A stretch of 64,000 nucleotides of DNA, taken from IMG/VR virus record IMGVR_UViG_3300031951_000010; one strand, given 5' to 3'. A program made the position numbers and the translations under genes. This DNA is from a virus. The first letter of the stretch is position 1. Every line of letters starts with the position of its first letter. Under the pieces are notes generated by a model. The model was not told the DNA's origin. It did not search any database and saw nothing but the letters and a program-made list of their open reading frames with translations. Shown here piece after piece: positions 1,407 through 64,000 of the stretch.

Positions 1407-1481
1407 TGGCTGGTGCCCCGAGACTCGAACTCGGAACCATTCGATTAACAGTCGAACGCTCTACCATTGAGCTAGGCACCA
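1407..1481 (-). tRNA. tRNA-Asn(GTT)
   Basis: Canonical cloverleaf: TGGTGCC/GGCACCA acceptor, loop CTGTTAA, TTCGAGT T-loop, G73, encoded CCA. Confidence 0.95.
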
Positions 1482-1491
1482 GTATTTTTTA

Positions 1492-1565
1492 TGGGAGCAA
1501 CGGAGGGAATCGAACCCTCTCGTGAAGAAATATGAACTCTTACTGCACGTCCCGTGCTCGTTGCC
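1492..1565 (-). tRNA. Atypical tRNA-Met(CAT)-like RNA
   Basis: GGCAACG/CGTTGCT acceptor + C + CCA; T-arm GAGGG-TTCGATT-CCCTC; anticodon loop TTCATAT; short D-arm GCAC-GGGAC-GTGC with 1-nt linker. Confidence 0.75.
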
Positions 1566-1585
1566 ACGAAAATATAAATTTAAAC

Positions 1586-1620
1586 AAAAAAACAGAGAGA
1601 AACTTAGTGGCTCCTCTCTG
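1586..1620 (-). terminator. Attenuator terminator upstream of tRNA-Met/Asn
   Basis: CAGAGAGGAG-CCACTAAG-TTTCTCTCTG followed by T7 on the minus strand. Confidence 0.85.
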
Positions 1621-1649
1621 CGTGAAAACAATGATGCGAATTCTTTCGA

Positions 1650-1709
1650 TCACTGATCAGGAGGTCCACTAAAGGCCCACATATTATTATTCAAATTCAT
1701 ATTAAACAT
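1650..1709 (-). CDS. Met/Asn-rich attenuator leader peptide MFNMNLNNNMWAFSGPPDQ
   Basis: 3 ATG and 5 AAT in the first 10 codons; 3' end complementary to the terminator 5' arm; directly upstream of tRNA-Met-like and tRNA-Asn. Confidence 0.8.
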   Translation of the reverse strand: MFNMNLNNNMWAFSGPPDQ

Positions 1710-1800
1710 GTTTAATCACTATTCTTGCGATGAATGTAATCCACCTGCTTATTTATACGACGGCTTTGATAAAAAAGTTTCACGATGCCAATATTTTTAA

Positions 1801-3136
1801 AAAGTAACCTGCAAAAATTCCCCATCTGCTAGTCGGTGGGGATGAATTGCAGTAATTAGAAAATATTCTACTATTTTTCTAAAACATATAGGTGATAGTA
1901 AATATTAACTGTAAAAGAGACTTATATGCTAAAGGCATATAAGTTTTTGATAAAACCCACAAAGGAGCAAATTGAGATGTTTGAAAAACATTTTGGTGCT
2001 ACTAGGTTTGTCTATAACTGGGGATTAGAACAAAAAACAAAATCTTATCAAGAAGGGAAAAAGACATTGACTTTTCTTGGATTGGGTCCAGAACTTGTTA
2101 AGTTTAAAAAAGAAAACATCTGGATGAAGGAAGTAAATAGCCAATCACTATTGGCTTCTCTGAAAAATTTAGACAATGCCTATACTAGATTCTTCAGAGA
2201 AAAGAAAGGATTTCCTAAATTCAAATCAAAATATAATCCAAAACAATCCTTCCAGTGCCCTCAACATTGTTCTGTAGATTTTGATAACTCTGAATTAACA
2301 ATCCCAAAGATTAAAAATATCAAAACTATATTCCATAGACAATTTGAAGGGGATATCAAAACAGTAACTATTTCTAGGGTTCCTTCTGGCAAATACTATG
2401 TTTCAATTCTAGTGGAAGATGGCAAAGAATTACCAATTAAATCTAAGCTAACTAGAAACAATGCTGTAGGCATTGACATGGGATTGAAATATTTTGTAGT
2501 TACTTCAGATGGAGAAAAAATTGCTAATCCAAAGTATTTCAGGAAATCCGAAGAAAGACTTGCAAGAAAACAAAAGAAATTAAGCAAGAAAAAGAAAGGG
2601 AGCAATAATAGGAATAAACAAAAACAAAAAGTAGCGAAGCTACATGAAAAAATAGCTAATCAAAGAAAAGACTTTCTACATAAAGTATCTCATAAAATAG
2701 TTCACAAGAACCACGGAACGATTTGTGTTGAGGATTTGTGTGTTAAAGGGATGGTCAGAAATCATAAATTAGCTAAATCAATATCTGATGTAGGATGGGG
2801 AATGTTCTATAACTTTTTGAAATATAAATCAGACTGGTATGGAAAGAATTTTCTTGATATTGGACAATTTGAACCTTCTAGTAAAATGTGTTCAGTTTGT
2901 GGTAATATTAAATCAGATTTGACATTATCTGATAGAGAATGGACTTGTGAGAGATGCAACAACAAACACGATAGAGATATCAATGCTTCTATTAACATTC
3001 GAAACATGGCATTCACTGCTCAGAATTTGATAAGATGCATAGGGTTGGAACAACCCGAATCAACGCCTGTGGAATTGTTAGGTTACTAACGACTACGAAG
3101 CAGGAAGCCCCACCCTTTATGGGTGGGGTAGTTCAC
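1801..3136 (+). mobile_element. IS200/IS605-family (IS1341-type, tnpB-only) element
   Basis: Left-end hairpin CCCCATC...GGTGGGG and right-end hairpin CCCCACCC-TTTAT-GGGTGGGG ending TTCAC; TTTAA immediately 5' of the left end; no tnpA. Confidence 0.85.
1926..3089 (+). CDS. tnpB: TnpB RNA-guided endonuclease
   Basis: N-terminal MLKAYKFLIKP HTH, RuvC motifs GIDMG / VEDL / DRDINAS, and CSVC...CERC zinc finger. Confidence 0.97.
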   Translation: MLKAYKFLIKPTKEQIEMFEKHFGATRFVYNWGLEQKTKSYQEGKKTLTFLGLGPELVKFKKENIWMKEVNSQSLLASLKNLDNAYTRFFREKKGFPKFKSKYNPKQSFQCPQHCSVDFDNSELTIPKIKNIKTIFHRQFEGDIKTVTISRVPSGKYYVSILVEDGKELPIKSKLTRNNAVGIDMGLKYFVVTSDGEKIANPKYFRKSEERLARKQKKLSKKKKGSNNRNKQKQKVAKLHEKIANQRKDFLHKVSHKIVHKNHGTICVEDLCVKGMVRNHKLAKSISDVGWGMFYNFLKYKSDWYGKNFLDIGQFEPSSKMCSVCGNIKSDLTLSDREWTCERCNNKHDRDINASINIRNMAFTAQNLIRCIGLEQPESTPVELLGY

Positions 3137-19772: not shown

Positions 19773-21467
19773 ATGTCCAATATTAAAGAAATTAAAATCA
19801 GTGATGGAGTTTTTGCTATAGTAGATGAGCAAGATTACGAACGTGTTATCAGCGTTGGTAATTGGCATATGCTTAAGGGTAGAAAATTTGTGTATCACCG
19901 ATTTAAGAAAAATGGCACGCGGTCACGAACTTCGCTTGGAGCTTTTATCTTGGGTTGCGCAGAAGTAAAGCATATTAATGGTGATGCGTTGGACTGCCGA
20001 AGATCGAATCTGATCCCAAAATTAGACAATAAGTCAGAATTTGTTCGCGAAGATGGTATTATTGGACATGTTTTAGATTCTTATGGAAGCCAAATTGCTG
20101 TAATTGATTCTGCAGATATTCCTCGCGCTCGACTTGTAAGGTGGTGGAAGGATGATAGCCGAGGGGTCTTGGGCAAGCTATCGAATGGCAAGCAAATTAA
20201 TCTTCAGAGATGGATTCTAGAGCTTGAATCCAGTGACTCACGCGCTGTTTTTTTTAAGGACGGTGATTTTACGAATTGTCGCAGATCAAATATGCATATT
20301 GTAAAGAATCCCACAGCTTTACGTTCTTACGAAAGAAAATTTAATGATTTTTCAATCCAGGGTTCAACTGTTTACATTAAATCGTATTGGAAATCTTATC
20401 CATTTGAAGTTCAAGTAGACGTTTCTGATTTAGATATGATAAAATCATACGGAAGATGGTCTATTATAGGCAGTGCTGAGCCGTATTTGTATGCTGTTGG
20501 CTCTAATTCAAGTGGCAAACAGATTCGTATGCATCGATTAATTATGAATGCACAAAAAACAGAAATTGTTGATCATATTGATGGAAATACATTAAACAAT
20601 CAGCGTGCTAATTTAAGAGTTACGGATAACCGCGGTAATGCCTTAAATCGCAACGTTTCTTCAAAAGGTGTTTCTGGCGATTCTAATGTTTACTTTCTGA
20701 GTCATTTAAAATCAAGACAGTGGTTGGTGAATCTTCGAGAAAAAGGTAGAAGTCTACACTGGTCTAGGCACGAAGACTTAGACACCGCACGCGAAACAGC
20801 ACAGCTGGCAAGAGCCATGTATTATCCGACAAGTAAAGAAGGCACTGCGATCACTGTAAATCTTGGGGGTTATCTAGAGTCTAGTTTTGTTAATGGCCCA
20901 GGAAATCGATGTGTAGTATGGTTTGCTGGCTGCCGCCGTGGATGCGTGGGTTGTTTTAATCCAGAACTTTGGTCTTTCCAGCCTCAGAATTTAGTTTCTC
21001 CAGAATCTCTTGCCAGTCGCATTATCAATAGTCAAGTTCATGGGTTGACTATCTCAGGCGGTGATCCGATGGATTCTCCGCTGGCAACTTTCCGATTTTT
21101 GAGAGCATTGCATGATTCGAACGGGGAATTAGGGGATCGCTTACCAGGCGGAATTATTCTTTTCACTGGCATGGTAATTGAGGAGTTAAATTATGTTCAA
21201 CGCGAATGCTTGAATTACATTGATCTTCTTATCGATGGCCGATTCGAGCAAGACAAGAGAATCGATCACATCCTTGCTGGCAGCTCAAATCAGCGCTTCC
21301 ATTTTCTTGACAAACCTGGCCGCGGAAAAGACAGAATCAATCCCGACGAAGTAAAGATCGACCATGAAGTCGAAGTGCACGCTAGCTCCGATCATTTAGA
21401 GATCACGGGCTTCCCATTTGTCAAGCACCAATGGTTAAAACAACACGGTTTAAAAGTAATTAAATAA
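19773..21467 (+). CDS. nrdG: Fusion of HNH-endonuclease repeats with an NrdG-like radical-SAM activase
   Basis: Three HNH-like units (last intact: RMHRLIM..VDHIDGNTLNNQRANLR), then S.VNGPG.RCVVWFAGCRRGCVGCFNPELW, GLTISGGDP, DLLIDGRF, GSSNQR. Confidence 0.85.
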   Translation: MSNIKEIKISDGVFAIVDEQDYERVISVGNWHMLKGRKFVYHRFKKNGTRSRTSLGAFILGCAEVKHINGDALDCRRSNLIPKLDNKSEFVREDGIIGHVLDSYGSQIAVIDSADIPRARLVRWWKDDSRGVLGKLSNGKQINLQRWILELESSDSRAVFFKDGDFTNCRRSNMHIVKNPTALRSYERKFNDFSIQGSTVYIKSYWKSYPFEVQVDVSDLDMIKSYGRWSIIGSAEPYLYAVGSNSSGKQIRMHRLIMNAQKTEIVDHIDGNTLNNQRANLRVTDNRGNALNRNVSSKGVSGDSNVYFLSHLKSRQWLVNLREKGRSLHWSRHEDLDTARETAQLARAMYYPTSKEGTAITVNLGGYLESSFVNGPGNRCVVWFAGCRRGCVGCFNPELWSFQPQNLVSPESLASRIINSQVHGLTISGGDPMDSPLATFRFLRALHDSNGELGDRLPGGIILFTGMVIEELNYVQRECLNYIDLLIDGRFEQDKRIDHILAGSSNQRFHFLDKPGRGKDRINPDEVKIDHEVEVHASSDHLEITGFPFVKHQWLKQHGLKVIK

Positions 21468-54737: not shown

Positions 54738-55013
54738 ATGGATATTCATTACGAGGCTGTTGGCTTTGCTAATGGAATGATCTTGATTAAAGTTACTGGC
54801 GACCCTGAAACGATCATTGAGGGTGAATTTGGTCTAAAGGATGAGTTTCCCTACAATCTTCAACCTGGCGACGAGGTTACTTGGAACGACCCCGATGATG
54901 GCCTTTGCAGTGTCACAGGTATTATTTCTGAGATTGAGTGGAATGGCGACTCTGCAACAATCATGTTTACCTCTGGTCAAGAGATTGAAGTATTGGCAGG
55001 AGAGCTTTCGTGA
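54738..55013 (+). CDS. Hypothetical protein
   Basis: GDEV.WNDPD.G.CS..G.I motif. Confidence 0.6.
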   Translation: MDIHYEAVGFANGMILIKVTGDPETIIEGEFGLKDEFPYNLQPGDEVTWNDPDDGLCSVTGIISEIEWNGDSATIMFTSGQEIEVLAGELS

Positions 55014-55540
55014 AGATTACTAAGTTTGCAGACATTCCTCAATACACCCGAGGGGCAAATTACGCAGTTAATGTTCCCTGGAGCCACTTGGAACGTGCGC
55101 TTGAAGCTTACAATGAGGGATGCACTAATCTTTATCTGGACCCTGATTTCCAACGCGGTCATGTCTGGTCACTTGATAAGAAGATTGCTTATGTTACATA
55201 CATTCTTCGCGGTGGTCAAGGCAGTCGTGAAATTAAGTTCAATCATCCTAATTGGTCAAATAGTGTCAAAGGAGATATGGTTCTTGTTGACGGTAAACAA
55301 AGACTTGAGGCTGTTCGTGGATTTCTTAGAGATGAATTCCCAATTTATGGTAGCTTGTTCAGTGAATTTACTGATGAATTGCGAATCATGCGATGCGATT
55401 TTGTTTTCCAAGTGAATGATTTGAAAACCAGAGAGGAAGTTTTACAATGGTATCTTGACTTGAATAGCGGTGGTGTTGTTCACACCGAAGAAGAGCTTAA
55501 TCGAGTCAGAGAAATGCTTGAAAAGGAAAAGGGGAATTAA
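55010..55540 (+). CDS. DUF262 / ParB-like domain protein
   Basis: LDPDFQRGHVW...VLVDGKQRLEA...LN.GG. Confidence 0.85.
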   Translation: MKITKFADIPQYTRGANYAVNVPWSHLERALEAYNEGCTNLYLDPDFQRGHVWSLDKKIAYVTYILRGGQGSREIKFNHPNWSNSVKGDMVLVDGKQRLEAVRGFLRDEFPIYGSLFSEFTDELRIMRCDFVFQVNDLKTREEVLQWYLDLNSGGVVHTEEELNRVREMLEKEKGN

Positions 55541-55580
55541 AAAATCCCCTTTTTCAGAATAATGATCGGATATAAGAAGC

Positions 55581-55928
55581 ATGAGTGAAGATTTTTTGAA
55601 CGGTTTTGCTATCGGTGCTGTTGCGATTATAGTTATTTGGGTTTGCTCGGCAATTAAGGCGAGTATTCCAAAACCTACAAACATGGGGTGGCTCGATGGA
55701 TCGGGTGATTGGATTGAGGTGGTTCGTATCGGTCACTCAGGAGTGACTGTGCGACATTGTGGGTATAATTCACGTAATTCACACTGGACATTTAGGCGCT
55801 GTGCAGAAGATGCTGGCTGGCCTCTTTCCAAGATGCTTGATTACCTGGGCCTTCCCGATGAAAAGACACTCAAGGAAGCTGACATGACCATGGGTGAATG
55901 GCTTTCACAAAAAAATAAAAATTCTTGA
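55581..55928 (+). CDS. Membrane-anchored hypothetical protein (paralog of 56430)
   Basis: CA.DAGW...M.D.LGLPDE..LKE..MT.GEWL. Confidence 0.7.
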   Translation: MSEDFLNGFAIGAVAIIVIWVCSAIKASIPKPTNMGWLDGSGDWIEVVRIGHSGVTVRHCGYNSRNSHWTFRRCAEDAGWPLSKMLDYLGLPDEKTLKEADMTMGEWLSQKNKNS

Positions 55929-55956
55929 AACTTTTCAAAGGTGATCGCCGTATAAC
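55927..55956 (+). promoter_or_regulatory. Promoter variant of an attenuated tRNA operon
   Basis: GAAACTTTT...GGTGATCGCCGTATAA; CGYCGTATAA also precedes the leaders at 1709(-) and 61725. Confidence 0.7.
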
Positions 55957-55996
55957 AAAAGAACATACACAAAGCAAAAGCTTTAAGGACACAATT

Positions 55997-56065
55997 ATGA
56001 CTCGCCGATATCTTTCACTGCTAGGACTCTTATCGCTTTCTCTTGAGAAAGCGGCGATTAGCTGA
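55997..56065 (+). CDS. Leu-rich attenuator leader peptide MTRRYLSLLGLLSLSLEKAAIS
   Basis: AAGGA SD; 7 Leu codons (6 CTN); 3' 20 nt complementary to the terminator 5' arm. Confidence 0.82.
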   Translation: MTRRYLSLLGLLSLSLEKAAIS

Positions 56066-56086
56066 TAGATTTTGCGATCAGTGTTT

Positions 56087-56127
56087 AATCCCCGATTTCT
56101 CTCAAGGAGTCGGGGATTTTTGTTTTT
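56087..56127 (+). terminator. Attenuator terminator upstream of tRNA-Leu genes
   Basis: AATCCCCGA...TCGGGGATT followed by TTTGTTTTT. Confidence 0.88.
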
Positions 56128-56138
56128 GCGTTTCACAT

Positions 56139-56223
56139 ACCGCTCTGGAGTAGCCAAACTTGCTACAGGCAACAGTCTTAGAAACTGTCTCTTTTCTGGG
56201 TTGGAATCCCAGGGGCGGTACCA
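56139..56223 (+). tRNA. Atypical tRNA-Leu(TAG)-like RNA
   Basis: ACCGCTC/GGGCGGT-A-CCA; ACAGT-CTTAGAA-ACTGT; T-loop TTGGAAT; GTAGC/GCTAC D-stem; no long variable arm. Confidence 0.7.
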
Positions 56224-56274
56224 ATATTGACAATAGAATAGAGGAAAGAGAAAATAGATTTTCGAGTGATAAAT

Positions 56275-56361
56275 GCGGACGTGGCGGAATTGGTTTACGC
56301 GCTACTTTGAGATGGTAGTCCCCGATTGGGGGTGTGGGTTCGAGTCCCACCGTCCGCACCA
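56275..56361 (+). tRNA. tRNA-Leu(GAG)
   Basis: Canonical type II cloverleaf, loop TTGAGAT, CCA. Confidence 0.93.
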
Positions 56362-56429
56362 AAAATCCCTCAAATTTTCGAGCCGCGATTGTATATATGA
56401 ATTATGAATGATTTTCATGGGAGTGCTCT

Positions 56430-56786
56430 TTGTCTAGTTGGCTGATCGGGTTGATTATCACGTTCTTTGTGATTTATTTTTTCTTCGGGAGTCAAAACCT
56501 TGATGATGAAGAAGAAGATTTAGAGTACTTACATTCTTGGAAAGATGGAAATGGCTTTACGACTAAAGTAATCCAAATCGGTCACGATAAGATCGTTGTA
56601 GAAAATTTTAGCAGAAAGCGCGGGCGAAAAGTTCGGGTGTGGACTGTTGAAGAATGCGCCAAAGACGCAGGATGGTCAGTTGAAAAGATGAGAGATCATC
56701 TTGGCCTTCCCGATGAAAGCGCTTTAAAAGAAGTTGAAATGACTCTTGGCGAGTGGCTTCACGAAAAGAATCAACATCAAAGATAG
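56430..56786 (+). CDS. Membrane-anchored hypothetical protein (paralog of 55581)
   Basis: Shared C-terminal block; start ambiguous (the promoter-predicted ATG at 56404 is out of frame). Confidence 0.6.
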   Translation: MSSWLIGLIITFFVIYFFFGSQNLDDEEEDLEYLHSWKDGNGFTTKVIQIGHDKIVVENFSRKRGRKVRVWTVEECAKDAGWSVEKMRDHLGLPDESALKEVEMTLGEWLHEKNQHQR

Positions 56787-56840
56787 AACCGATCAGTAAA
56801 AAATCCCCTGTTTTCGTGGGGGATTTTTGATAGATAAAGC

Positions 56841-57966
56841 ATGGCAACACGAGGCTGGGAGCCCACAGACTACAATCCGAACATTATTCGTGATGTTTCT
56901 AATCGAACCATTGAAGAATTTGAAAACGATATTCGATTTTCTCGTGACTGGGGCTTCGTACAAAGTTATGGCCTTGAAAGAGCTACTCAGCTTCTGGGTC
57001 GAGCCCCAGATACCCGAGCAGTTGAATTCTTTAATGAGTTCATGTCTCAGTATTCCCGAGCCGTCGAGCTTATGGAACAGCTAGGCATCAAAAAGAAGAT
57101 TCTGAAAAAATTCAAGCGATATCCGATTGCTCCTTGTCTTTATGCTGATTTGAATGAAGAATGTAATGATGTATTGACGGGATCGAAAATCGGTGGAATT
57201 CCTGACCAGCGCCAAGCTGGAAGTGCGCTGTCTTCAAGGCAATATTGTTAGTCGCATCAAGGCAGCTTGGCCCAAGGATTCAAATGGTAAATATATGATA
57301 TTCGTTGGCCAAATCAAAGTGCCTGGACACATCGTCGCTCCCTGGGATTATATCATGGGCGAGAAAATAGACAAGTATGGAAATTATGATCGACCTCTTA
57401 ATGGGTTTAGCCACGGGCAGAACATTTTTGAACAAGAGCATACTTATTTAATTTTTCGCAGTGCGCATGCACCAAATTTTGGAGACATGTTCGATTGTGC
57501 GATGGTGCATTCTCGCTTCGATGCCAATGAATCGGTAAAGGAAGATAAATATATTGAGGCTGTGAAAAAAGCTATTCCGCAGTATCGCCGAAGCAACATG
57601 GAAGACAATTGTCCAATTTGGAGTGATCGGTGTCACACGCTAACTGATTACCGAGTTAGCATGACGCTTGATTTAATTCGCGACTTTGAATGGGCAGGTG
57701 GGTTTGAAGGCAATGTATTTGATTACATAGATTCGTGGAGAGAACACTTCGGTTCTTATGGCACAATTCAAATTTTTGGCGATCCAAGATCACAACAGAC
57801 CCCACAGCGATTTGCTGAAACACGCACTGTTTACCGTCCTCGAATGATGCGCCCGTGGCTTGGAATGACAGACCTAAAGCACGATTACACTTGGCAATAT
57901 AATTTTTGTCACGAAGGTTTTCTGAGTGAATCAATTATGGGCAAAGTTGATGGAAGCTGTACCTAA
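56841..57966 (+). pseudogene. YwqG/DUF1963-like gene split by a frameshift (56841..57251 + 57193..57966)
   Basis: GSKIGGIPD in one frame continues as WPK...MIFVGQI in the +1 frame. Confidence 0.5.
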
Positions 57967-58010
57967 TTAAAAATCCCCTGTTTTTCATGGGGGATTTTGA
58001 TATATAAGGC

Positions 58011-58412
58011 ATGGCTGATTATTACACCCATTTTTCCTTTGTCGTTGACGTTAAGAATCGTGAACAAGCAGACGGTTTGAAGAAAATGCTCACCCAGGCC
58101 AAAAATGAAGAGCTAAATGAAGAAACTTTGTACACTCCTTGGAGTTGTGAAACTAAGGACGATTTAACTAGCTTTTGGTTTCACTCTGATGATTGTGGTC
58201 AGGTTGATCTTATTGTTGACATTTTGGCTAAATGGCAAGAAGACTTCAATTACGATCAGCCCATTTGTTTTGAGTGGGCGAATACTTGTAGTAAGCCCAA
58301 ACTGGATGCTTTTGGTGGTGGGTCAGTTCTGATTTACAAGGGCGAAGCTCATTACACGAACACTTTTGATTGGTTGACTAAAAAGAAAGCCGAACTTGGA
58401 ATCGTTGACTGA
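58011..58412 (+). CDS. Hypothetical protein
   Basis: MADYYTHFSF...FEWANTCSKPKLDAFGGG phage-type family. Confidence 0.75.
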   Translation: MADYYTHFSFVVDVKNREQADGLKKMLTQAKNEELNEETLYTPWSCETKDDLTSFWFHSDDCGQVDLIVDILAKWQEDFNYDQPICFEWANTCSKPKLDAFGGGSVLIYKGEAHYTNTFDWLTKKKAELGIVD

Positions 58413-58457
58413 CTAAAAAATCCCCTGTTTTTCAATAGGGGATTTGATATATCAATT

Positions 58458-58594
58458 GTGCCAAGAAGCACTTGAAGTGCAGTCTACGGATATGCCTTAT
58501 TAGGGCATGTGATTACTGCGTAGGAAGGACAGGGTGTAATGAAGTACGGTCGCGACGAAAAGTTACATCGGGTTAAAATCCCAACTTGGCACCA
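58458..58594 (+). ncRNA. 137-nt tRNA-like RNA
   Basis: Starts at the promoter-predicted +1; GTGCCAAG/CTTGGCAC terminal stem, ends ...CCA; GCAC-N5-GTGC-AGT arm; GGG-TTAAAAT-CCC T-like arm. Confidence 0.65.
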
Positions 58595-58616
58595 AATTGA
58601 AAAATGAGAATCTAAT

Positions 58617-58917
58617 CGGGGCGTGGCGAAATGGCAGACGCAGGGGACTTATAAAATGAGCACTTGTTTGTGAAAGCTGCAAGTGAATGCAATCAAATTC
58701 GGTGAAACCTTAACAGTTAGGCTGATGGCAATACCGAGCCAAGCTAACTCAAAACAGAGTTAGAAGGTGTAGAGACTAGATGGTTGCTGCCTAAGTCGAA
58801 AGATATGGCAAAGGTATAGTCCAGACCACAAAATCCTTTGGGATCGTAGTGAAAGCTATAGTGGTATGAAAATCCCTTAGTAGCAATACTGTGTGGGTTC
58901 GAGTCCCACCGCCCCGA
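58617..58917 (+). tRNA. tRNA-Leu(TAA) with group I intron
   Basis: Exons 58617-58650 and 58869-58917 rebuild loop CTT|AAAA; CCA not encoded. Confidence 0.9.
58651..58868 (+). ncRNA. Group I intron (trnL/IC3-like), 218 nt, no ORF
   Basis: P AAATTCGGTGAAAC, Q AATACCGAGC, R GTGTAGAGACTAGATGG, S AAGGTATAGTCC; terminal G; inserted after U34. Confidence 0.9.
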
Positions 58918-58946
58918 TTAGGTTATATATTGATTACTAATGCGCT

Positions 58947-59465
58947 TTGTGTGCTTTTAGTATAAGAATGTTTGTGTCACGTTTGCAAAAATATACCCTA
59001 GAGGAGATAAAAGAAATAATATCTAAATCAAAATCTTATGCTGAAGTAATTCGATCTATTGGTTTAATTCCTGCTGGTGGAAATTACAAAACATTGCAAA
59101 GTTTTGTACATGAATACCGAATTGATACTTCGCATTTTCTGGGCTCAGCTTGGGGGCGAGGAAACCAATTGGATTATCTCCACAATAGCAATAGAAAATC
59201 ATTAGAAGATGTTTTTTCGGGAAAAGTAGCTTATAAATCAAGCCATAAATTAAGGCTTCGGCTGATTAAAGAAGGATATTTTGAGCATAAATGCTATAAA
59301 TGTGGACTAAAAGAGTGGCAAGGACACGAAATACCCTTGGAATTAGAGCATATAAATGGAGATCATTGTGATAACAGTCTCGAAAACCTCATTATTCTTT
59401 GCCCCAACTGTCATGCTCAAACAGAAACTTATGCTGGTAAAAACAAAAAAAGACGATTAGGTTAA
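58947..59465 (+). CDS. Free-standing HNH endonuclease
   Basis: CYKC...LELEHINGDHCDNSLENL..LCPNCH. Confidence 0.9.
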   Translation: MCAFSIRMFVSRLQKYTLEEIKEIISKSKSYAEVIRSIGLIPAGGNYKTLQSFVHEYRIDTSHFLGSAWGRGNQLDYLHNSNRKSLEDVFSGKVAYKSSHKLRLRLIKEGYFEHKCYKCGLKEWQGHEIPLELEHINGDHCDNSLENLIILCPNCHAQTETYAGKNKKRRLG

Positions 59466-59505
59466 AAATCCCCTAAATTTTTCTTCAGATTTCGATAAAT
59501 TAATT

Positions 59506-59754
59506 ATGATCGATGACAAAAGAACTTCAGAATGTGTTATTCTTCATATTGAAGTTGATGTTGAGTACCCTGAAGGAATGCATCTTGGGGTTGTTCTATC
59601 TGGTTTGCAAAACAATGCGAAAATTGCCATTACTGAACTTGATGACGATAGGGTCCAAATCACAGCAAATAGAATCACAGCAGTTGAACATTTTGTTACT
59701 GGAGAAATTTTAGAAGATTACCAGTGGAAAAAGAAAAAAGAATCTCCTCGATAA
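59506..59754 (+). CDS. Hypothetical protein
   Basis: Fronted by the promoter motif. Confidence 0.6.
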   Translation: MIDDKRTSECVILHIEVDVEYPEGMHLGVVLSGLQNNAKIAITELDDDRVQITANRITAVEHFVTGEILEDYQWKKKKESPR

Positions 59755-59758
59755 ATGT

Positions 59759-59842
59759 GCCGCAGTGGTGGAATGGTAGACACGGCAAGCTCAAACCTTG
59801 CTGCCGAAAGGCGTGAAGGTTCGAATCCTTTTTGCGGCACCA
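59759..59842 (+). tRNA. tRNA-Leu(CAA)
   Basis: Type II cloverleaf, loop CTCAAAC, CCA. Confidence 0.93.
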
Positions 59843-59910
59843 TATTTTCACATATGCATGACTATGTGAAAAATCCCCTGTTTTCTCTTTCTTGATCGGA
59901 TATATAAATC

Positions 59911-60540
59911 ATGTTTAATATGAATGTGATTCTTTTCAAGAACAATTCTATCGAAGAAAATTATCTTTTCTCTGGTGAAAATTCTGAAGATGTTGCGAAA
60001 AAGGCAGAAAGCAAAATGATTGAAATTCTTCGTTCAGAAATGTCTAACTTTGACGAATACACGTCGGAAGATATTGACAACATTTTGGAAGATGGATATG
60101 AATCCTTTGGAAATGGAGCGGTTTTTATTACGTGGCCTGACATTGTTGATGTTGATAAGGAGATTGATTCGGAAAATAATTTTGTTTTTCGTGGCACTAT
60201 TGAATACTCCATCCCGCACATTGATTCAGAAGTAGTTCGCCTGTGCGCCGCACTAAATGAGCCCATTGAAGTTGGTCTACAGTGGGAATCACATTATCGC
60301 AATGGTAATGGCTACGCTGTCCGCGTTAATGCAGATATCTACTCAGTTGATGAAGAACTTGCTGCCGAGGAATTTAGTGATTATTGGGATTCAGGATGCG
60401 ATGATGAAATTCGCTATTCTGGGGACTACAATTGGTCCCTTTTGGGCAAAGACTATAAAGAGGCCATCAGTATTCTCCAAAAGTATGTTGATGAGCAAAA
60501 GCGTCGTTACCCAGGCTACGATATTAGAATTAGCAAATAA
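59911..60540 (+). CDS. Hypothetical protein
   Basis: Fronted by the promoter motif. Confidence 0.7.
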   Translation: MFNMNVILFKNNSIEENYLFSGENSEDVAKKAESKMIEILRSEMSNFDEYTSEDIDNILEDGYESFGNGAVFITWPDIVDVDKEIDSENNFVFRGTIEYSIPHIDSEVVRLCAALNEPIEVGLQWESHYRNGNGYAVRVNADIYSVDEELAAEEFSDYWDSGCDDEIRYSGDYNWSLLGKDYKEAISILQKYVDEQKRRYPGYDIRISK

Positions 60541-60577
60541 TCCCCTGTTTTCTCTTTCTTGATCGAATATATAAATC

Positions 60578-61000
60578 ATGACAATTGACGGAAAGTTGCT
60601 TAAAAGACTAATGTGTAGCAACGAGGCTTTTGATATTTTGGGTGACATCGTAAGTTGGAATTCTGGAGGTTGCTGGATTCTTGCCGAAGCTCTGCGCCGA
60701 TTCATTGGCGATCAGGCTACTATCGTGGCCATCGCTGATGATCGCTGCCAACACCAACATATTGTCGTGAAAGTGGGGAATTTGTATTATGACGCCGACG
60801 GAGAGTCGAACGAAGGGCGTCTGCTGCATCGCTGGATGGATTATGAACGACTCCGTAATCCTCGAATCGTAGGTTTTGATCCAGAACTGGCCGCTGATTT
60901 AGAAATTCCTTGCGAAGAAGAACTTGTAACGCAAGTCTATAACTTGCTGAACTCGCGTCTGAAAAATCCCCTTTTTTCACAATCGGGAGCGCATATATAA
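60578..61000 (+). CDS. Hypothetical protein
   Basis: GGCWILAEAL...H.VVK....YDADG motif. Confidence 0.7.
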   Translation: MTIDGKLLKRLMCSNEAFDILGDIVSWNSGGCWILAEALRRFIGDQATIVAIADDRCQHQHIVVKVGNLYYDADGESNEGRLLHRWMDYERLRNPRIVGFDPELAADLEIPCEEELVTQVYNLLNSRLKNPLFSQSGAHI

Positions 61001-61003
61001 ATC

Positions 61004-61210
61004 ATGGACCCATTTCTTTTTTATTCTACCTATTTTATCTTGGGACTTGGTTTTATGTTCGCATTGATGGCAATCGGAGCGCATCACTATACCAATGGCC
61101 CATCTCGTGAACAAGAACAAAAACAAAGAATCAAGTTTATTATTCTATCAGTGCTTTTAATAGCTAGTGCAATTTTTCTGGGCCGTTATGCTGCGGGTCT
61201 GCTTTTTTGA
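61004..61210 (+). CDS. Small membrane protein
   Basis: Two TM segments; fronted by the promoter motif. Confidence 0.65.
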   Translation: MDPFLFYSTYFILGLGFMFALMAIGAHHYTNGPSREQEQKQRIKFIILSVLLIASAIFLGRYAAGLLF

Positions 61211-61276
61211 TTTCATTCTCTTGAAATGGTTTTAAAAAATCCCCTTTTTTCAGAAAACCAAATCAATATAAAAAAT

Positions 61277-61597
61277 ATGCGAATTCGACCGCAATCCGAC
61301 CCGAACAAGGAATATCTCATCGACTTTTACTACCCGTATGGGAAGCAAGGACACAAGAAGAAGGGCACCAAGACTGTCTGCACTATCTCTGTCGGCCCTG
61401 TGGGTAGTCTCGACAAGGACAAGACCGAAGTCTCGACCACTACCGTTCGCCGACATAGTACCGATCAGGACAATCTTGTCGTAGCTCGTAATTATGCACT
61501 GGCCAAGGCCCTATCCCCGATTGAAGCTAGTGTCCGACAAGAGATTTGGGAACAGGCTCCGATTCGACGAGCAGACATTTCCCTGGAACTCGACTAA
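61277..61597 (+). CDS. Hypothetical protein
   Basis: Fronted by the promoter motif; terminator-like hairpin at 61615-61648. Confidence 0.65.
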   Translation: MRIRPQSDPNKEYLIDFYYPYGKQGHKKKGTKTVCTISVGPVGSLDKDKTEVSTTTVRRHSTDQDNLVVARNYALAKALSPIEASVRQEIWEQAPIRRADISLELD

Positions 61598-61724
61598 ACT
61601 CCAAAAACATTCTCATTGAGGGAGAATTTAATCCCTCAATGAGAAAAAACAAAAAACTGCTAACAAAAAGCAGGTGATCGTCGTATAATAAGAGAAGAAA
61701 CTGAAAAGCACAAAGAGCTATATT

Positions 61725-61847
61725 ATGAATCATCTCTTATCGACGACAATATGTGGAACAACAGGAACCTCAACAAGAGGAATCCTTTCCCTTGGCGTTA
61801 TCGGCAAGGATAGTGATTCTGATTCAGGAGAACCCATCGAATCGTAG
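61725..61847 (+). CDS. Thr/Gly/Ser-rich attenuator leader peptide (40 aa)
   Basis: MNHLLSTTICGTTGTSTRGILSLGVIGKDSDSDSGEPIES; ACA x4 and GGA x4; end complementary to the terminator arm. Confidence 0.78.
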   Translation: MNHLLSTTICGTTGTSTRGILSLGVIGKDSDSDSGEPIES

Positions 61848-61867
61848 CTTTACTGTGATTACAGAAC

Positions 61868-61908
61868 AAAGAGGCTCGATTCGATAAGATCGAGCCTCTT
61901 TTCTTTTT
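61868..61908 (+). terminator. Attenuator terminator upstream of tRNA-Gly/Ser/Thr
   Basis: 13-bp stem AAAGAGGCTCGAT/ATCGAGCCTCTTT followed by a T-rich tail. Confidence 0.9.
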
Positions 61909-62037
61909 AGATATGATGTCTGGGAAGAGAAAGATCGAATATTGAAAATTTCATACAGGTATAGATATAAAAGTGTTAGGGGGTGTTGGATCGATCTTTG
62001 ATCGCAGGCCTCACCCCCTTGATCGAGACACATTTTC

Positions 62038-62111
62038 GCGAGATTGGTATATGGGTTGTGCCCTAGCCTTCCAAGCTAGAGAAAAGGGTTCGAATCCCTT
62101 ATCTCGCTCCA
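62038..62111 (+). tRNA. tRNA-Gly(TCC)
   Basis: Cloverleaf, loop CTTCCAA, U73, CCA. Confidence 0.93.
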
Positions 62112-62162
62112 ATTTAAGACACATTTCTTTGTGCTGCCAATGGGCAGCTTTCAAAAGAAAAC

Positions 62163-62249
62163 GGATGGGTGACAGAGCGATCTATTGTAGCGGTCTTGAA
62201 AACCGCCGTGCCAAAAGCACCGTGGGTTTGAATCCCACCCCATCCTCCA
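62163..62249 (+). tRNA. tRNA-Ser(TGA)
   Basis: Type II, loop CTTGAAA, CCA; U73 is atypical for Ser. Confidence 0.9.
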
Positions 62250-62276
62250 TTTTGTAACAAAATCATAAAATTCAAA

Positions 62277-62310
62277 GCAGGTGTAGCTCAGTGGTAGAGC
62301 GCCCGCCGCG
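62277..62310 (+). pseudogene. Orphan tRNA 5' half
   Basis: GCAGGTG-TA-GCTC-AGTGGTA-GAGC; acceptor pairs 6/7 with CTCCTGC at 62869-62875. Confidence 0.65.
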
Positions 62311-62347
62311 AAGGTTGATGGTTGCAATATCGATAAATAGATTATGT

Positions 62348-62764
62348 ATGGCAATAACAAAATACAAAGGAGCCGTCGGGCTAACTAATGTAATGGCCTG
62401 TCTTGTCAATCAAAAAGCAAAAATCTTTGTTCCAATAGACGAAGACTGTCAATATGACCTGGTGGTAGATTATCAAAATTATCTTTACAGAGTGCAAGTT
62501 AAATATGCTGAGGCAAAAAATGGCAAGATCGTTGTAAAGACGCGCTCAACGAATAACTATTGTGAAATTCGTTATACTAAAGATCATTTTGACGTGATTG
62601 CTGTTTGGGACAATGTTGGCAAAAAAGCATATTTTATTTCATCGAATTTAATCACAGAAGGAATGACGGAAATGACCTTGAGATTAGATGCACCAAAAAA
62701 CAATCAAACTAAAAACATAAGATTGGCTCGTAATTATGAGCAATTTAATGCTGCGGTCGCATAG
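62348..62764 (+). CDS. PD-(D/E)XK endonuclease (I-Ssp6803I-like)
   Basis: TK.KG...P......YDLVVD....YRVQVK...Y....FD..AV; 3' end overlaps tRNA-Thr. Confidence 0.85.
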   Translation: MAITKYKGAVGLTNVMACLVNQKAKIFVPIDEDCQYDLVVDYQNYLYRVQVKYAEAKNGKIVVKTRSTNNYCEIRYTKDHFDVIAVWDNVGKKAYFISSNLITEGMTEMTLRLDAPKNNQTKNIRLARNYEQFNAAVA

Positions 62765-62832
62765 TGGTCGATTGCACCTCTCTTGTAAAGAGGAACTCCA
62801 CACCGTGGGTTCGAATCCCACCCGTAGCTCCA
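62750..62832 (+). tRNA. tRNA-Thr(TGT)
   Basis: GCTGCGG/CCGTAGC, loop CTTGTAA, CCA; 11-nt variable region. Confidence 0.88.
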
Positions 62833-62845
62833 TTTTTCGCACATA

Positions 62846-62876
62846 TGTGTCAGGGGTTCGAATCCCCTCTCCTGCT
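62846..62876 (+). pseudogene. Orphan tRNA 3' half
   Basis: TGTC-AGGGG-TTCGAAT-CCCCT-CTCCTGC-T. Confidence 0.65.
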
Positions 62877-62946
62877 TTGAGTTGAGTGATGATATCCGAT
62901 CATAAAAAATCCCCCTTTTTCTCAATAGTGATCGGATATATAAAGT

Positions 62947-63545
62947 ATTGCTGTGAGCTAAATCAATTGACACAGCATGATGAAACCAAAATCATCTAAA
63001 AACAATAAGGTGCTCCATATACGTCTGGGAAAGATAAATTAGACGTGGACACACTGTGATGTGGACTAATCACAGCGCACTGGGGCATGTGTGCAAGCCC
63101 GAAAAGCCTATCTTTACTGATATAGTTAAAGAGAAAGAGCAGAGAGTTAAGGCTTAAAATAAACTCCATGCGTTCGTAAGGATGAACTCAAAGACGAGTT
63201 CAGTTATGACTAGGATACGAGAGGAGGGAGGCAATGAGTTTCTCTCCTCTCCCCGACAAAGCGATTTCCGACTGCTCATCGGAGAAGTGATCTAGTAAAA
63301 CACTCAGAAAAACACTAGCGTAGGAAATGCGTTAATCCCTGATTTTTTATCGGTTTTTAGAGACAAAAAACTGTTCGTATAGGGCTTGCGGTAAGCCTCT
63401 TGTTTTAGCTAGGTGATCCTGTATGTAAAAACCAAGCGGATGGAACAAATCAATTTGTTTTCGCGAGCAAATGATCCATTGACTTTGGGGAACAGCGTAA
63501 GAACGTTTCGCCATGAGGCTTTGAGCAAAGTCTCGTTCCCCAAAA
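62947..63545 (+). ncRNA. Large (~600 nt) highly structured ncRNA
   Basis: Own promoter motif whose +1 is not an ATG; no credible ORF; more than 12 consecutive hairpins; ends GGGGAAC...GTTCCCC before tRNA-Asp. Confidence 0.7.
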
Positions 63546-63558
63546 ATAAAAAGATTCT

Positions 63559-63635
63559 GGGTATGTAGTTCAGTTGGTTAGAGCACCTGCCTGTCACGCA
63601 GGAAGTCGCGAGTTCAAGTCTCGTCATATCCGCCA
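63559..63635 (+). tRNA. tRNA-Asp(GTC)
   Basis: Canonical cloverleaf, loop CTGTCAC, G73, CCA. Confidence 0.95.
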
Positions 63636-63655
63636 AAATTTCCAAAGGAGACAAA

Positions 63656-63871
63656 ATGAATAGACAAATAGAAAGCCTCGATCATCTGGTGTCTCTTGGG
63701 CTACTGACATCATATGAGTTTGTAAACGTGTCAGCCAATAACATTGAGGGCGAGATTTCAGAACATCATAATTCTGATCGATTGAAACTCATATTCCCGA
63801 ATGGGTTGGAAGTGAAGATCACTGCGATCACAACAGGCATGGAAGAAGATGCTCTTTTGAGATTGGAATAA
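63656..63871 (+). CDS. Hypothetical protein
   Basis: GGAG SD; 71 aa. Confidence 0.6.
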   Translation: MNRQIESLDHLVSLGLLTSYEFVNVSANNIEGEISEHHNSDRLKLIFPNGLEVKITAITTGMEEDALLRLE

Positions 63872-64000
63872 AAATCCCCCATTTTCAGAAGAGTGATCGG
63901 ATATAAGAAGTATGGAAGCAAAGATTTATCGCCAGGCTCATCCCCAGGATGAAAATCGTCTTTCTGTTGCCGCTGATATTTTTGCACGGCGGCACCGCCT

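Follow-up and report, generated by a model that had tools for sequence, protein, structure and literature searches.

A putative multivalent leader-peptide attenuator ahead of tRNA genes in an uncultured giant phage

We analysed a stretch of 64,000 nucleotides of an uncultured giant phage (the 64-kb window, IMG/VR record IMGVR_UViG_3300031951_000010) and, within it, a tRNA unit on the + strand at 61660-62832 which we call U3. The phage is represented by dozens of assemblies, the longest of which is a contig of 420,993 bp, those of the Joint Genome Institute coming from the metagenome series Ga03159xx, and it is abundant in lakes (assemblies ERZ27248008 and Ga0315902); the window contains rIIA-like genes, many tRNA genes and a promoter motif at about 35 copies. 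U3 is laid out in the following way (Table 1): a promoter-like site and a Shine-Dalgarno-like site are followed by a small open reading frame (ORF) of 40 codons, the leader, then by an intrinsic terminator, a spacer and an array with the genes of tRNA-Gly(UCC), tRNA-Ser(UGA) and tRNA-Thr(UGU). A hairpin upstream of the promoter-like site is probably the end of the preceding transcription unit. From this arrangement, and from its recurrence, we consider it probable that U3 is a multivalent leader-peptide transcription attenuator, which would give the phage feedback control over the transcription of its tRNA genes.

The leader of U3 and its alternative pairing

A preliminary description of this DNA, made from the letters alone, had noticed a leader of 40 codons and quoted a run of its codons. 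Both are present: the ORF occupies 61725-61847 and the run is located at 61740-61781. The short ORF stands, as in an attenuator, near the promoter (TATAAT at 61684-61689), with a start signal (AAGAG) and a predicted translation. The promoter-like site includes the motif GGTGATCGTCGTATAA (61673-61688) which, aligned with the sister units described below, marks the tRNA units that appear to be controlled by a leader.

Expected codon counts come from a codon table built on the 13,374 codons of 58 long ORFs in the window. The codons which can be read by the Gly(UCC), Ser(UGA) and Thr(UGU) tRNAs, that is ACA/ACG, GGA/GGG and TCA/TCG, make up 13 of the 39 leader codons while 2.9 are expected (P=3e-6). 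ACA, GGA and TCA had been named as the exact codons of the TGT, TCC and TGA anticodons; this is correct for the tRNAs as called by ARAGORN and Rfam, and these strict Watson-Crick cognates account for 10/39 codons, with 1.97 expected (P=1.7e-5). The readable codons stand at positions 6, 7, 8, 11-14, 16, 17, 19, 34, 35 and 40 of the leader, ten of the 13 being inside codons 6-19. Their enrichment is confined to the frame of the leader (13/40, versus 2/39 in each other frame), and a single one of the 759 other small ORFs (started by ATG, 15-50 codons long, in about 94 kb of the phage) is equally enriched for the U3 codon set. The leader is thus rich in the codons of those amino acids or tRNAs that an attenuator at this place would sense. 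No homologue of the leader peptide was found in the protein collection.

The preliminary description had also remarked on a DSDSDS run in the leader peptide and on a tRNA-Asp gene farther downstream. The run exists (61808-61825), but a link with tRNA-Asp is unsupported and we dropped it, because Asp codons are not enriched in the leader (3/39 versus 2.7 expected, P=0.51) and because a copy of the general promoter (62905) and a terminator-like hairpin (63382-63398) lie between U3 and that gene.

A Rho-independent terminator lies between the leader and the tRNA genes (61868-61901, followed by a U-tract). It had been described with a stem of 13 bp; the terminator is where it was expected, but the stem has 14 pairs. 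The hairpin folds at -21.1 kcal/mol, and it forms in the minimum-energy fold as well as with a ribosome at the stop codon. For its 5' arm and loop (61870-61886), RNAduplex selects the stretch 61835-61852 as the best partner upstream: the duplex reaches -19.9 kcal/mol, versus -12.3 +/- 2.3 kcal/mol for 500 dinucleotide shuffles (p=0.004). This is the pairing that had been read by eye for ATCGAATCG-T-AGC (61836-61848), which spans the stop codon TAG. The 5' arm and loop of the terminator double as the 3' strand of a predicted antiterminator, which excludes the terminator and which is already folded in the nascent RNA when the 3' arm has yet to be made.

The nascent RNA, ending at the terminator loop, was folded with a masked ribosome footprint of 30 nt. 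When the A site is on the stop codon, the antiterminator pairing is lost and the full RNA folds the terminator. When the ribosome is at any of codons 2-33, which include all the codons of the sensor run, the antiterminator keeps 12 of the 14 arm bases. In these fold calculations the position of the ribosome selects the structure, the stop codon being inside the antiterminator strand.

Sister units and matched leaders in other giant phages

The 10-mer CG[CT]CGTATAA has exactly three copies in the 64 kb, each of them before a small ORF, a terminator and tRNAs; the units in question are U3 and two sisters, U1 (Met-like and Asn) and U2 (Leu and Leu), detailed in Table 1. A fourth unit, U4, is situated outside the window and was reached via exact-protein look-ups. 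It has the promoter GATCGTATAAT, the same leader sequence TAAGGACAC as U2 (in both units at the position equivalent to AAGAG of U3) and the ORF MKTHTTSNTNMVFTRRNSATGVQQRCRRSA, which ends with ..CAA CAA CGC TGT CGG CGT.. and is followed, in this order, by tRNA-Gln(CUG), tRNA-Gln(UUG), an HNH gene, tRNA-Arg(UCG), tRNA-Arg(GCG) and tRNA-Cys(GCA). The 3' end of this ORF forms a long helix with the stretch immediately 5' of tRNA-Gln.

Each leader is matched to its own tRNAs. Asn alone takes 5 of the 18 codons of the U1 leader (P=0.003), CUN codons take 6/21 in U2 (P=2.8e-4), and P is 0.003 for U1 and for U2 when only the tRNAs called by ARAGORN are counted. We crossed the four leaders with the four tRNA sets: the diagonal gives P = 4.7e-4, 2.8e-4, 3e-6 and 2.6e-3, all 12 off-diagonal values are at least 0.17, and the true pairing of leaders and tRNAs ranks best of the 24 permutations. 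The small ORFs which are as enriched as the leaders of the four units number 1, 3, 1 and 14 of 759. Furthermore, for amino acids which allow a synonymous choice, 24 of 31 codons are those read by the unit's own tRNAs, versus 15.8 expected (P=0.0018). This points to the sensing of tRNAs and not of amino acids alone.

The predicted switch recurs as well. The best partner of the terminator is again in the last codons of the ORF in U1 (-18.0 kcal/mol, p=0.01) and in U2 (-14.4 kcal/mol, p=0.014). In U2 an extra hairpin sequesters the antiterminator strand, which is freed only by a stall at codons 2-12, where five of the Leu codons of this leader are held. The first tRNA starts about 20-26 nt past the terminator in U1 and U2; hence we concluded that these tRNAs would be made only by read-through. 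The seven single tRNA genes of the region, namely Leu(UAA) with an intron, Leu(CAA), Asp, Thr(GGU), Met, Arg(UCU) and Lys, have no leader: they come directly after protein genes or after the general promoter.

We sampled 44 IMG/VR loci blind, via the RlaP-like protein of the phage's tRNA region (51-66% identity), and scored the small ORFs at most 450 nt upstream of 29 tRNA clusters against the anticodons of their own cluster and of the other clusters. Two of the 29 stand out, at a score which is reached by 0.9% of mismatched pairs. One of them, L035, is carried by a 607-kb contig and reads TTGACG-17-TATAAA, MMMNRNNSNNIEGHA, GCCGCCC-cgca-GGGCGGC with a U-tract, then two tRNA-Asn genes; its leader is rich in Asn. 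In its nascent fold the antiterminator begins at the stop codon, and the terminator is regained when a ribosome is placed there. The other, L044, has TTGACA..TATAAA, MFTHSHHIHHHCSEGSGKV, a leader rich in His, and a hairpin with a U-tract which ends at the first of two tRNA-His genes. As these are unrelated giant phages, the design is not peculiar to one genome. In another giant phage (L033, 4880-5030), seven tRNAs (Ile, Asn, Trp, Gln, Glu, Leu and Tyr) form an array which begins 9 nt past the end of an ORF of 47 codons; this ORF is rich in Glu, Gln and Arg, but its codon match is weak (score 1.5).

Table 1. Positions and strands of the elements of U3, U1 and U2 and of flanking features, in the numbering of the window
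Feature	Position	Strand	Remarks
Perfect 14-bp hairpin	61610-61645		Between the upstream gene 61277-61597 and the U3 promoter; terminator-like on the minus strand in the scan; on the plus strand, an A-run follows
Promoter-like site CTAACA-18-TATAAT	61660-61689	+	Promoter scan 10/12; TATAAT 61684-61689
Shine-Dalgarno-like AAGAG	61713-61717	+	7 nt 5' of ATG; read from the sequence
Leader ORF, 40 codons + TAG	61725-61847	+	Peptide MNHLLSTTICGTTGTSTRGILSLGVIGKDSDSDSGEPIES
Sensor run, leader codons 6-19	61740-61781	+	10 cognate: TCG ACG ACA.. GGA ACA ACA GGA. TCA ACA. GGA
Putative antiterminator 5' strand	61835-61852	+	Spans the TAG stop 61845-61847; best RNAduplex partner of 61870-61886
Intrinsic terminator	61868-61909	+	14-bp stem and 6-nt loop (61868-61901), U-tract, tail TCTTTTTAG
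Spacer, terminator to tRNA-Gly	61910-62037	+	136 nt counted from 61902, the first base past the stem
tRNA-Gly(UCC)	62038-62111	+	ARAGORN; Rfam 55.2 bits
tRNA-Ser(UGA)	62163-62249	+	ARAGORN; Rfam 48.7 bits
5' remnant of disrupted tRNA gene	62277-62307	+	Acceptor, D arm; read from the sequence
PD-(D/E)XK homing-endonuclease-like ORF inside the array	62348-62764	+	Pfam PF11645 PDDEXK_5, E=4.2e-23
tRNA-Thr(UGU)	62750-62832	+	83 nt, 11-nt variable loop, weak D stem; ARAGORN; Rfam 57.3 bits
3' remnant of disrupted tRNA gene	62846-62876	+	T arm, acceptor; pairs with 62277-62283
tRNA-Asp(gtc)	63559-63635		ARAGORN and Rfam
U1, Met-like/Asn	1407-1762	-	Motif CGTCGTATAA 1762-1753; ORF 1709-1650 = MFNMNLNNNMWAFSGPPDQ
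U1 switch (predicted)	1673-1592	-	Antiterminator strands 1673-1657 and 1621-1604; terminator 1621-1592
U1 tRNAs	1565-1407	-	Met(CAU)-like cloverleaf 1565-1492; tRNA-Asn(GUU) 1481-1407
U2, Leu/Leu	55946-56361	+	Motif CGCCGTATAA; ORF 55997-56065 = MTRRYLSLLGLLSLSLEKAAIS
U2 switch (predicted)	56044-56118	+	Antiterminator strands 56044-56060 and 56087-56102; terminator 56087-56118
U2 tRNAs	56139-56361	+	Leu(UAG)-like cloverleaf 56139-56223; tRNA-Leu(GAG) 56275-56361

Proposed mechanism and competing explanations

Judging from the sequence, 61660-62832 is most likely a single transcription unit, the tRNA genes of which are gated by a ribosome-mediated attenuator. It would work in the following way: RNA polymerase would start a few bases past TATAAT and a ribosome would load onto the 40-codon leader. 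If Thr-tRNA(UGU), Gly-tRNA(UCC) and Ser-tRNA(UGA) are plentiful, the ribosome would reach TAG and cover 61835-61852, so that the terminator (61868-61901) would fold and transcription would stop ahead of the tRNA genes. If the ribosome lags at ACA/ACG, GGA or TCA/TCG, which are 10 of the codons 6-19, the stretch 61835-61852 would remain free, it would pair with 61870-61886 and the polymerase would read through into tRNA-Gly, tRNA-Ser and tRNA-Thr. The new tRNAs would speed decoding and close the loop, which would amount to a multivalent negative feedback on three tRNAs through one leader. We infer that the leader is translated, that the terminator is functional and that read-through depends on the speed of decoding; tRNA-Thr is taken to be co-transcribed with tRNA-Gly and tRNA-Ser, an assumption which extends across the inserted endonuclease gene. 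The preliminary description had proposed that a single leader integrates three tRNA signals. The frame-specific codon match, the geometry of terminator and antiterminator centred on the stop codon and the masked folds all support this, and so do the three sister units, one of them outside the window, and the two independent giant-phage cases.

Several observations weigh against the attenuator. Within U3, tRNA-Thr sits behind a tRNA remnant and a homing-endonuclease gene, and the Shine-Dalgarno-like site is weak (AAGAG). The antiterminator of U3, like that of U1, is the default fold even when no ribosome is present. This means that U3 should terminate only if the leader is translated briskly to its end, and that the switch relies on efficient translation of the leader. 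The spacer of U3, in which a hairpin is folded at about 61973-62030, also holds the hexamers TTGAAA-18-TATAAA (61942-61971), which could possibly act as a second promoter bypassing the attenuator; these hexamers fail the promoter scan and have neither of the two promoter motifs of the phage, and the corresponding gap in U1 and U2 is too short to hold such a pair. Among the sister units, neither ARAGORN nor the Rfam tRNA model recognises the Met-like RNA of U1, ARAGORN also misses the Leu(UAG)-like RNA of U2, to which the Rfam tRNA model gives 25 bits (threshold 29), and U4 has no canonical terminator, its leader having 6 Thr codons which are read by no U4 tRNA. Finally, a diverged relative of U3 was not found in IMG/VR, INPHARED or the protein collection: blastn of the unit on INPHARED gave tRNA matches only, IMG/VR searched by the upstream protein and by two promoter patterns gave no relative, and the protein collection gave self matches only. 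A pattern scan of metagenomes gave L009, which matches a different stretch of the window at 95% identity, and L007, which proved to be no relative but the same phage farther downstream. Homologues of the PcfJ protein beside U1 belong to bacterial genomes or to phages that lack synteny. Across U3, seven assemblies of the phage agree at 100% identity, and there is consequently no microdiversity to read.

The leaders could moreover be shortage alarms in counter-defence: an anticodon nuclease of the host or a host shut-off would deplete particular tRNAs, ribosomes would stall on the matching leader and replacement tRNAs would be made. Under that hypothesis the shape-variant tRNAs (Met-like, Leu(UAG)-like and the tRNA-Thr with a long variable loop) might escape cleavage, and the response might act alongside the RNA ligase and the peptidyl-tRNA hydrolase of the phage. 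We regard this use of the leaders as rather doubtful. It is quite unlikely, in our opinion, that promoter, small ORF and terminator form a self-contained gene for a micro-protein or a small RNA, always ending at 61901, with the tRNAs transcribed from a promoter in the spacer. The spacer hexamers, the strength of the terminator and the unusual stability of the whole U3 leader RNA (z=-5.9) would fit such a gene; it leaves unexplained, however, the frame-specific match of leader codons and anticodons in four units and the terminator partner on the stop codon in three, a second promoter would not fit into U1, U2, L035 or L044, the hexamers carry neither phage motif and the peptide has no homologue in the protein collection. 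We would give about the same small credit to a fixed, leaky terminator which dampens tRNA transcription to a constant low level, the leader having no effect and its codons reflecting co-adaptation or drift. Partial terminators are indeed common before stable-RNA genes, conditional read-through is something that we deduced, and U4 has a matched leader with no canonical terminator. Yet neither an ORF nor a codon match nor an antiterminator at the stop codon is required for a constant dampener, and all three recur, also in unrelated phages.

U4, with the helix between the 3' end of its ORF and the stretch 5' of tRNA-Gln and with no terminator seen, would fit another hypothesis, that translation of the leader controls the tRNAs through RNA processing or stability, for example by remodelling a precursor for RNase P, RNase E or RNase III. 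The further hairpin in the U3 spacer could be of the same nature. Since U1, U2, U3, L035 and L044 all have canonical terminators, made of a hairpin and a U-tract, which overlap the alternative pairing, we believe this slightly less probable again than a constant dampener. Chance remains, that is a low-complexity small ORF which happens to precede a terminator and tRNAs. The phage has many small ORFs (about 94 kb contain 760 of them with 15-50 codons), but the empirical rates given above are low, only matched pairs of leader and tRNAs are enriched, and the duplex p values of 0.01, 0.014 and 0.004 are each obtained at a stop codon; a mere coincidence is thus highly improbable.

Other identities were tried and rejected. 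A T-box riboswitch was discarded as RF00230 has no match at E<=1 in 55000-64000. The Rfam leader families (Thr_leader RF00506 and the His, Leu and Trp leaders) have no match on the strand of the leader; the sole match, to Thr_leader, covers the terminator on the opposite strand and has 22.7 bits (gathering score 55) and E=0.99. This shows that the U3 element, if it is an attenuator, is an analogue and not a homologue of these leaders. A precursor of a ribosomally synthesised and post-translationally modified peptide does not fit: the run rich in Ser, Thr, Cys and Gly is at the N-terminus, the neighbourhood has no modifying enzymes, and the sister leaders differ widely in composition, each following its own tRNAs. 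Nor is there a split or intron-containing tRNA around the endonuclease gene, for ARAGORN in intron mode finds none and a 3' strand of the anticodon stem is missing.

Genomic surroundings, known systems and significance

The array of U3 and its surroundings contain other peculiarities. Between 62277 and 62876, an endonuclease of PF11645 (I-Ssp6803I family) and tRNA-Thr(UGU) are lodged between the remnants of a tRNA gene deprived of its anticodon arm, and the stop codon of the endonuclease overlaps the start of tRNA-Thr; the tRNA array of U4 is split likewise by its HNH gene (L028, 16921-17706). The gene of tRNA-Leu(UAA), at 58618-58915, has a group I intron in the anticodon loop (Rfam RF00028, 58.2 bits), directly followed by an HNH-like ORF (58947-59465). 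An interrupted tRNA-Leu(UAA) is an arrangement typical of cyanobacteria and plastids. Three tRNAs depart from the usual shape: a Met(CAU)-like RNA (1492-1565, - strand) with a D loop of 3 nt, a Leu(UAG)-like RNA (56139-56223, + strand) with no long variable arm, both of which fold as cloverleaves though ARAGORN misses them, and tRNA-Thr(UGU) (62750-62832, + strand) with its variable loop of 11 nt.

The general motif AAAAATCCCCnnTTTTC-N7/8-(T)GATCGGATATATAAAnC has about 35 copies on the + strand of the window at 22844-63886, with ATG directly after, and in many copies an inverted repeat, CGATCA...TGATCG, flanks it. The motif resembles a phage promoter, and its placement would give most genes leaderless or near-leaderless mRNAs. 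At 62905-63545 a copy of it has ATT instead of ATG at the expected start, then about 600 nt with no credible ORF; this region, which contains the hairpin 63382-63398 and ends before tRNA-Asp, matches no Rfam family. To the left of the window, downstream of U1, genes for peptidyl-tRNA hydrolase 2, peptide deformylase, RNA ligase, NUDIX and Tad2/Tad6-like proteins are found (L021, 11225-16449); to the right, PARP-like and Macro-domain proteins are encoded among single tRNA genes (L019, 16727-19828). A TnpB/IS605 OrfB gene lies at 1926-3089 (PF01385, PF07282), and in a variant contig of the phage (L009, 1-1400) a related TnpB copy, of about 70% DNA identity, is inserted at about 35.8 kb of the window instead. 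A protein of 564 amino acids (19773-21467) has both an HNH_3 endonuclease segment and a Fer4_12/radical-SAM domain.

Multivalent leader attenuators are known from enterobacteria: thrL senses Thr and Ile, the ilvGMEDA leader senses Ile, Val and Leu, and trpL, hisL, leuL and pheL belong to the same group. The putative phage attenuator resembles those of amino-acid operons in its short leader near the promoter, where the codons of two or more amino acids form runs, and in its terminator with a mutually exclusive antiterminator, where the position of the ribosome when the terminator is transcribed would set the outcome; the masked folds of U2 even reproduce the full 1:2 / 2:3 / 3:4 arrangement. 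It differs from them in that phage tRNA genes, and not biosynthetic enzymes, would be regulated, the sensed molecule being also the product; in that codon choice tracks the units' own anticodons; in that the antiterminator of U3 is the default fold without a ribosome; and in that no sequence relationship exists. The pheM leader attenuates pheST, the genes of phenylalanyl-tRNA synthetase, in E. coli. It is likewise a leader-peptide attenuator placed over a gene of the translation apparatus and keyed to the decoding of cognate codons, but it serves a cellular synthetase and one amino acid, whereas several viral tRNA genes are concerned here. The T-box also exerts feedback on genes of translation supply through a choice of terminator or antiterminator set by the state of a tRNA; it binds uncharged tRNA via a specifier codon and the T-box loop, with no ribosome, in contrast to the ORF with many cognate codons described here.

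Our full-text literature search turned up no paper in which tRNA genes, phage or cellular, are attenuated by a leader peptide, and the only paper combining 'tRNA operon', 'leader peptide' and 'attenuator' mentions a tRNA operon in passing. Phage tRNA genes have been presented as a counter to tRNA-targeting host defences (eLife 2023, PMC10264068; Nat Commun 2024, PMC11555353), a context where sensing the loss of tRNAs would benefit the phage; according to their abstracts, these two papers deal with which tRNAs phages carry and why, and not with leader-peptide regulation of their transcription.

The reason for the presence of tRNA genes in phages has been a matter of debate for decades and, to our knowledge, the regulation of these genes has hardly been studied. 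If our interpretation of U3 is true, the phage gauges the speed of decoding codon by codon and tops up only those tRNAs which are in short supply, and the logic of attenuation extends to a case where the sensed molecule is also the product. Regulated tRNA arrays could then be recognised in phage genomes by a sequence signature, and there would be a compact natural sensor of tRNA supply, which could be used for instance as a readout of tRNA-targeting defence systems. The recurrence in two unrelated giant phages suggests that the design is widespread.

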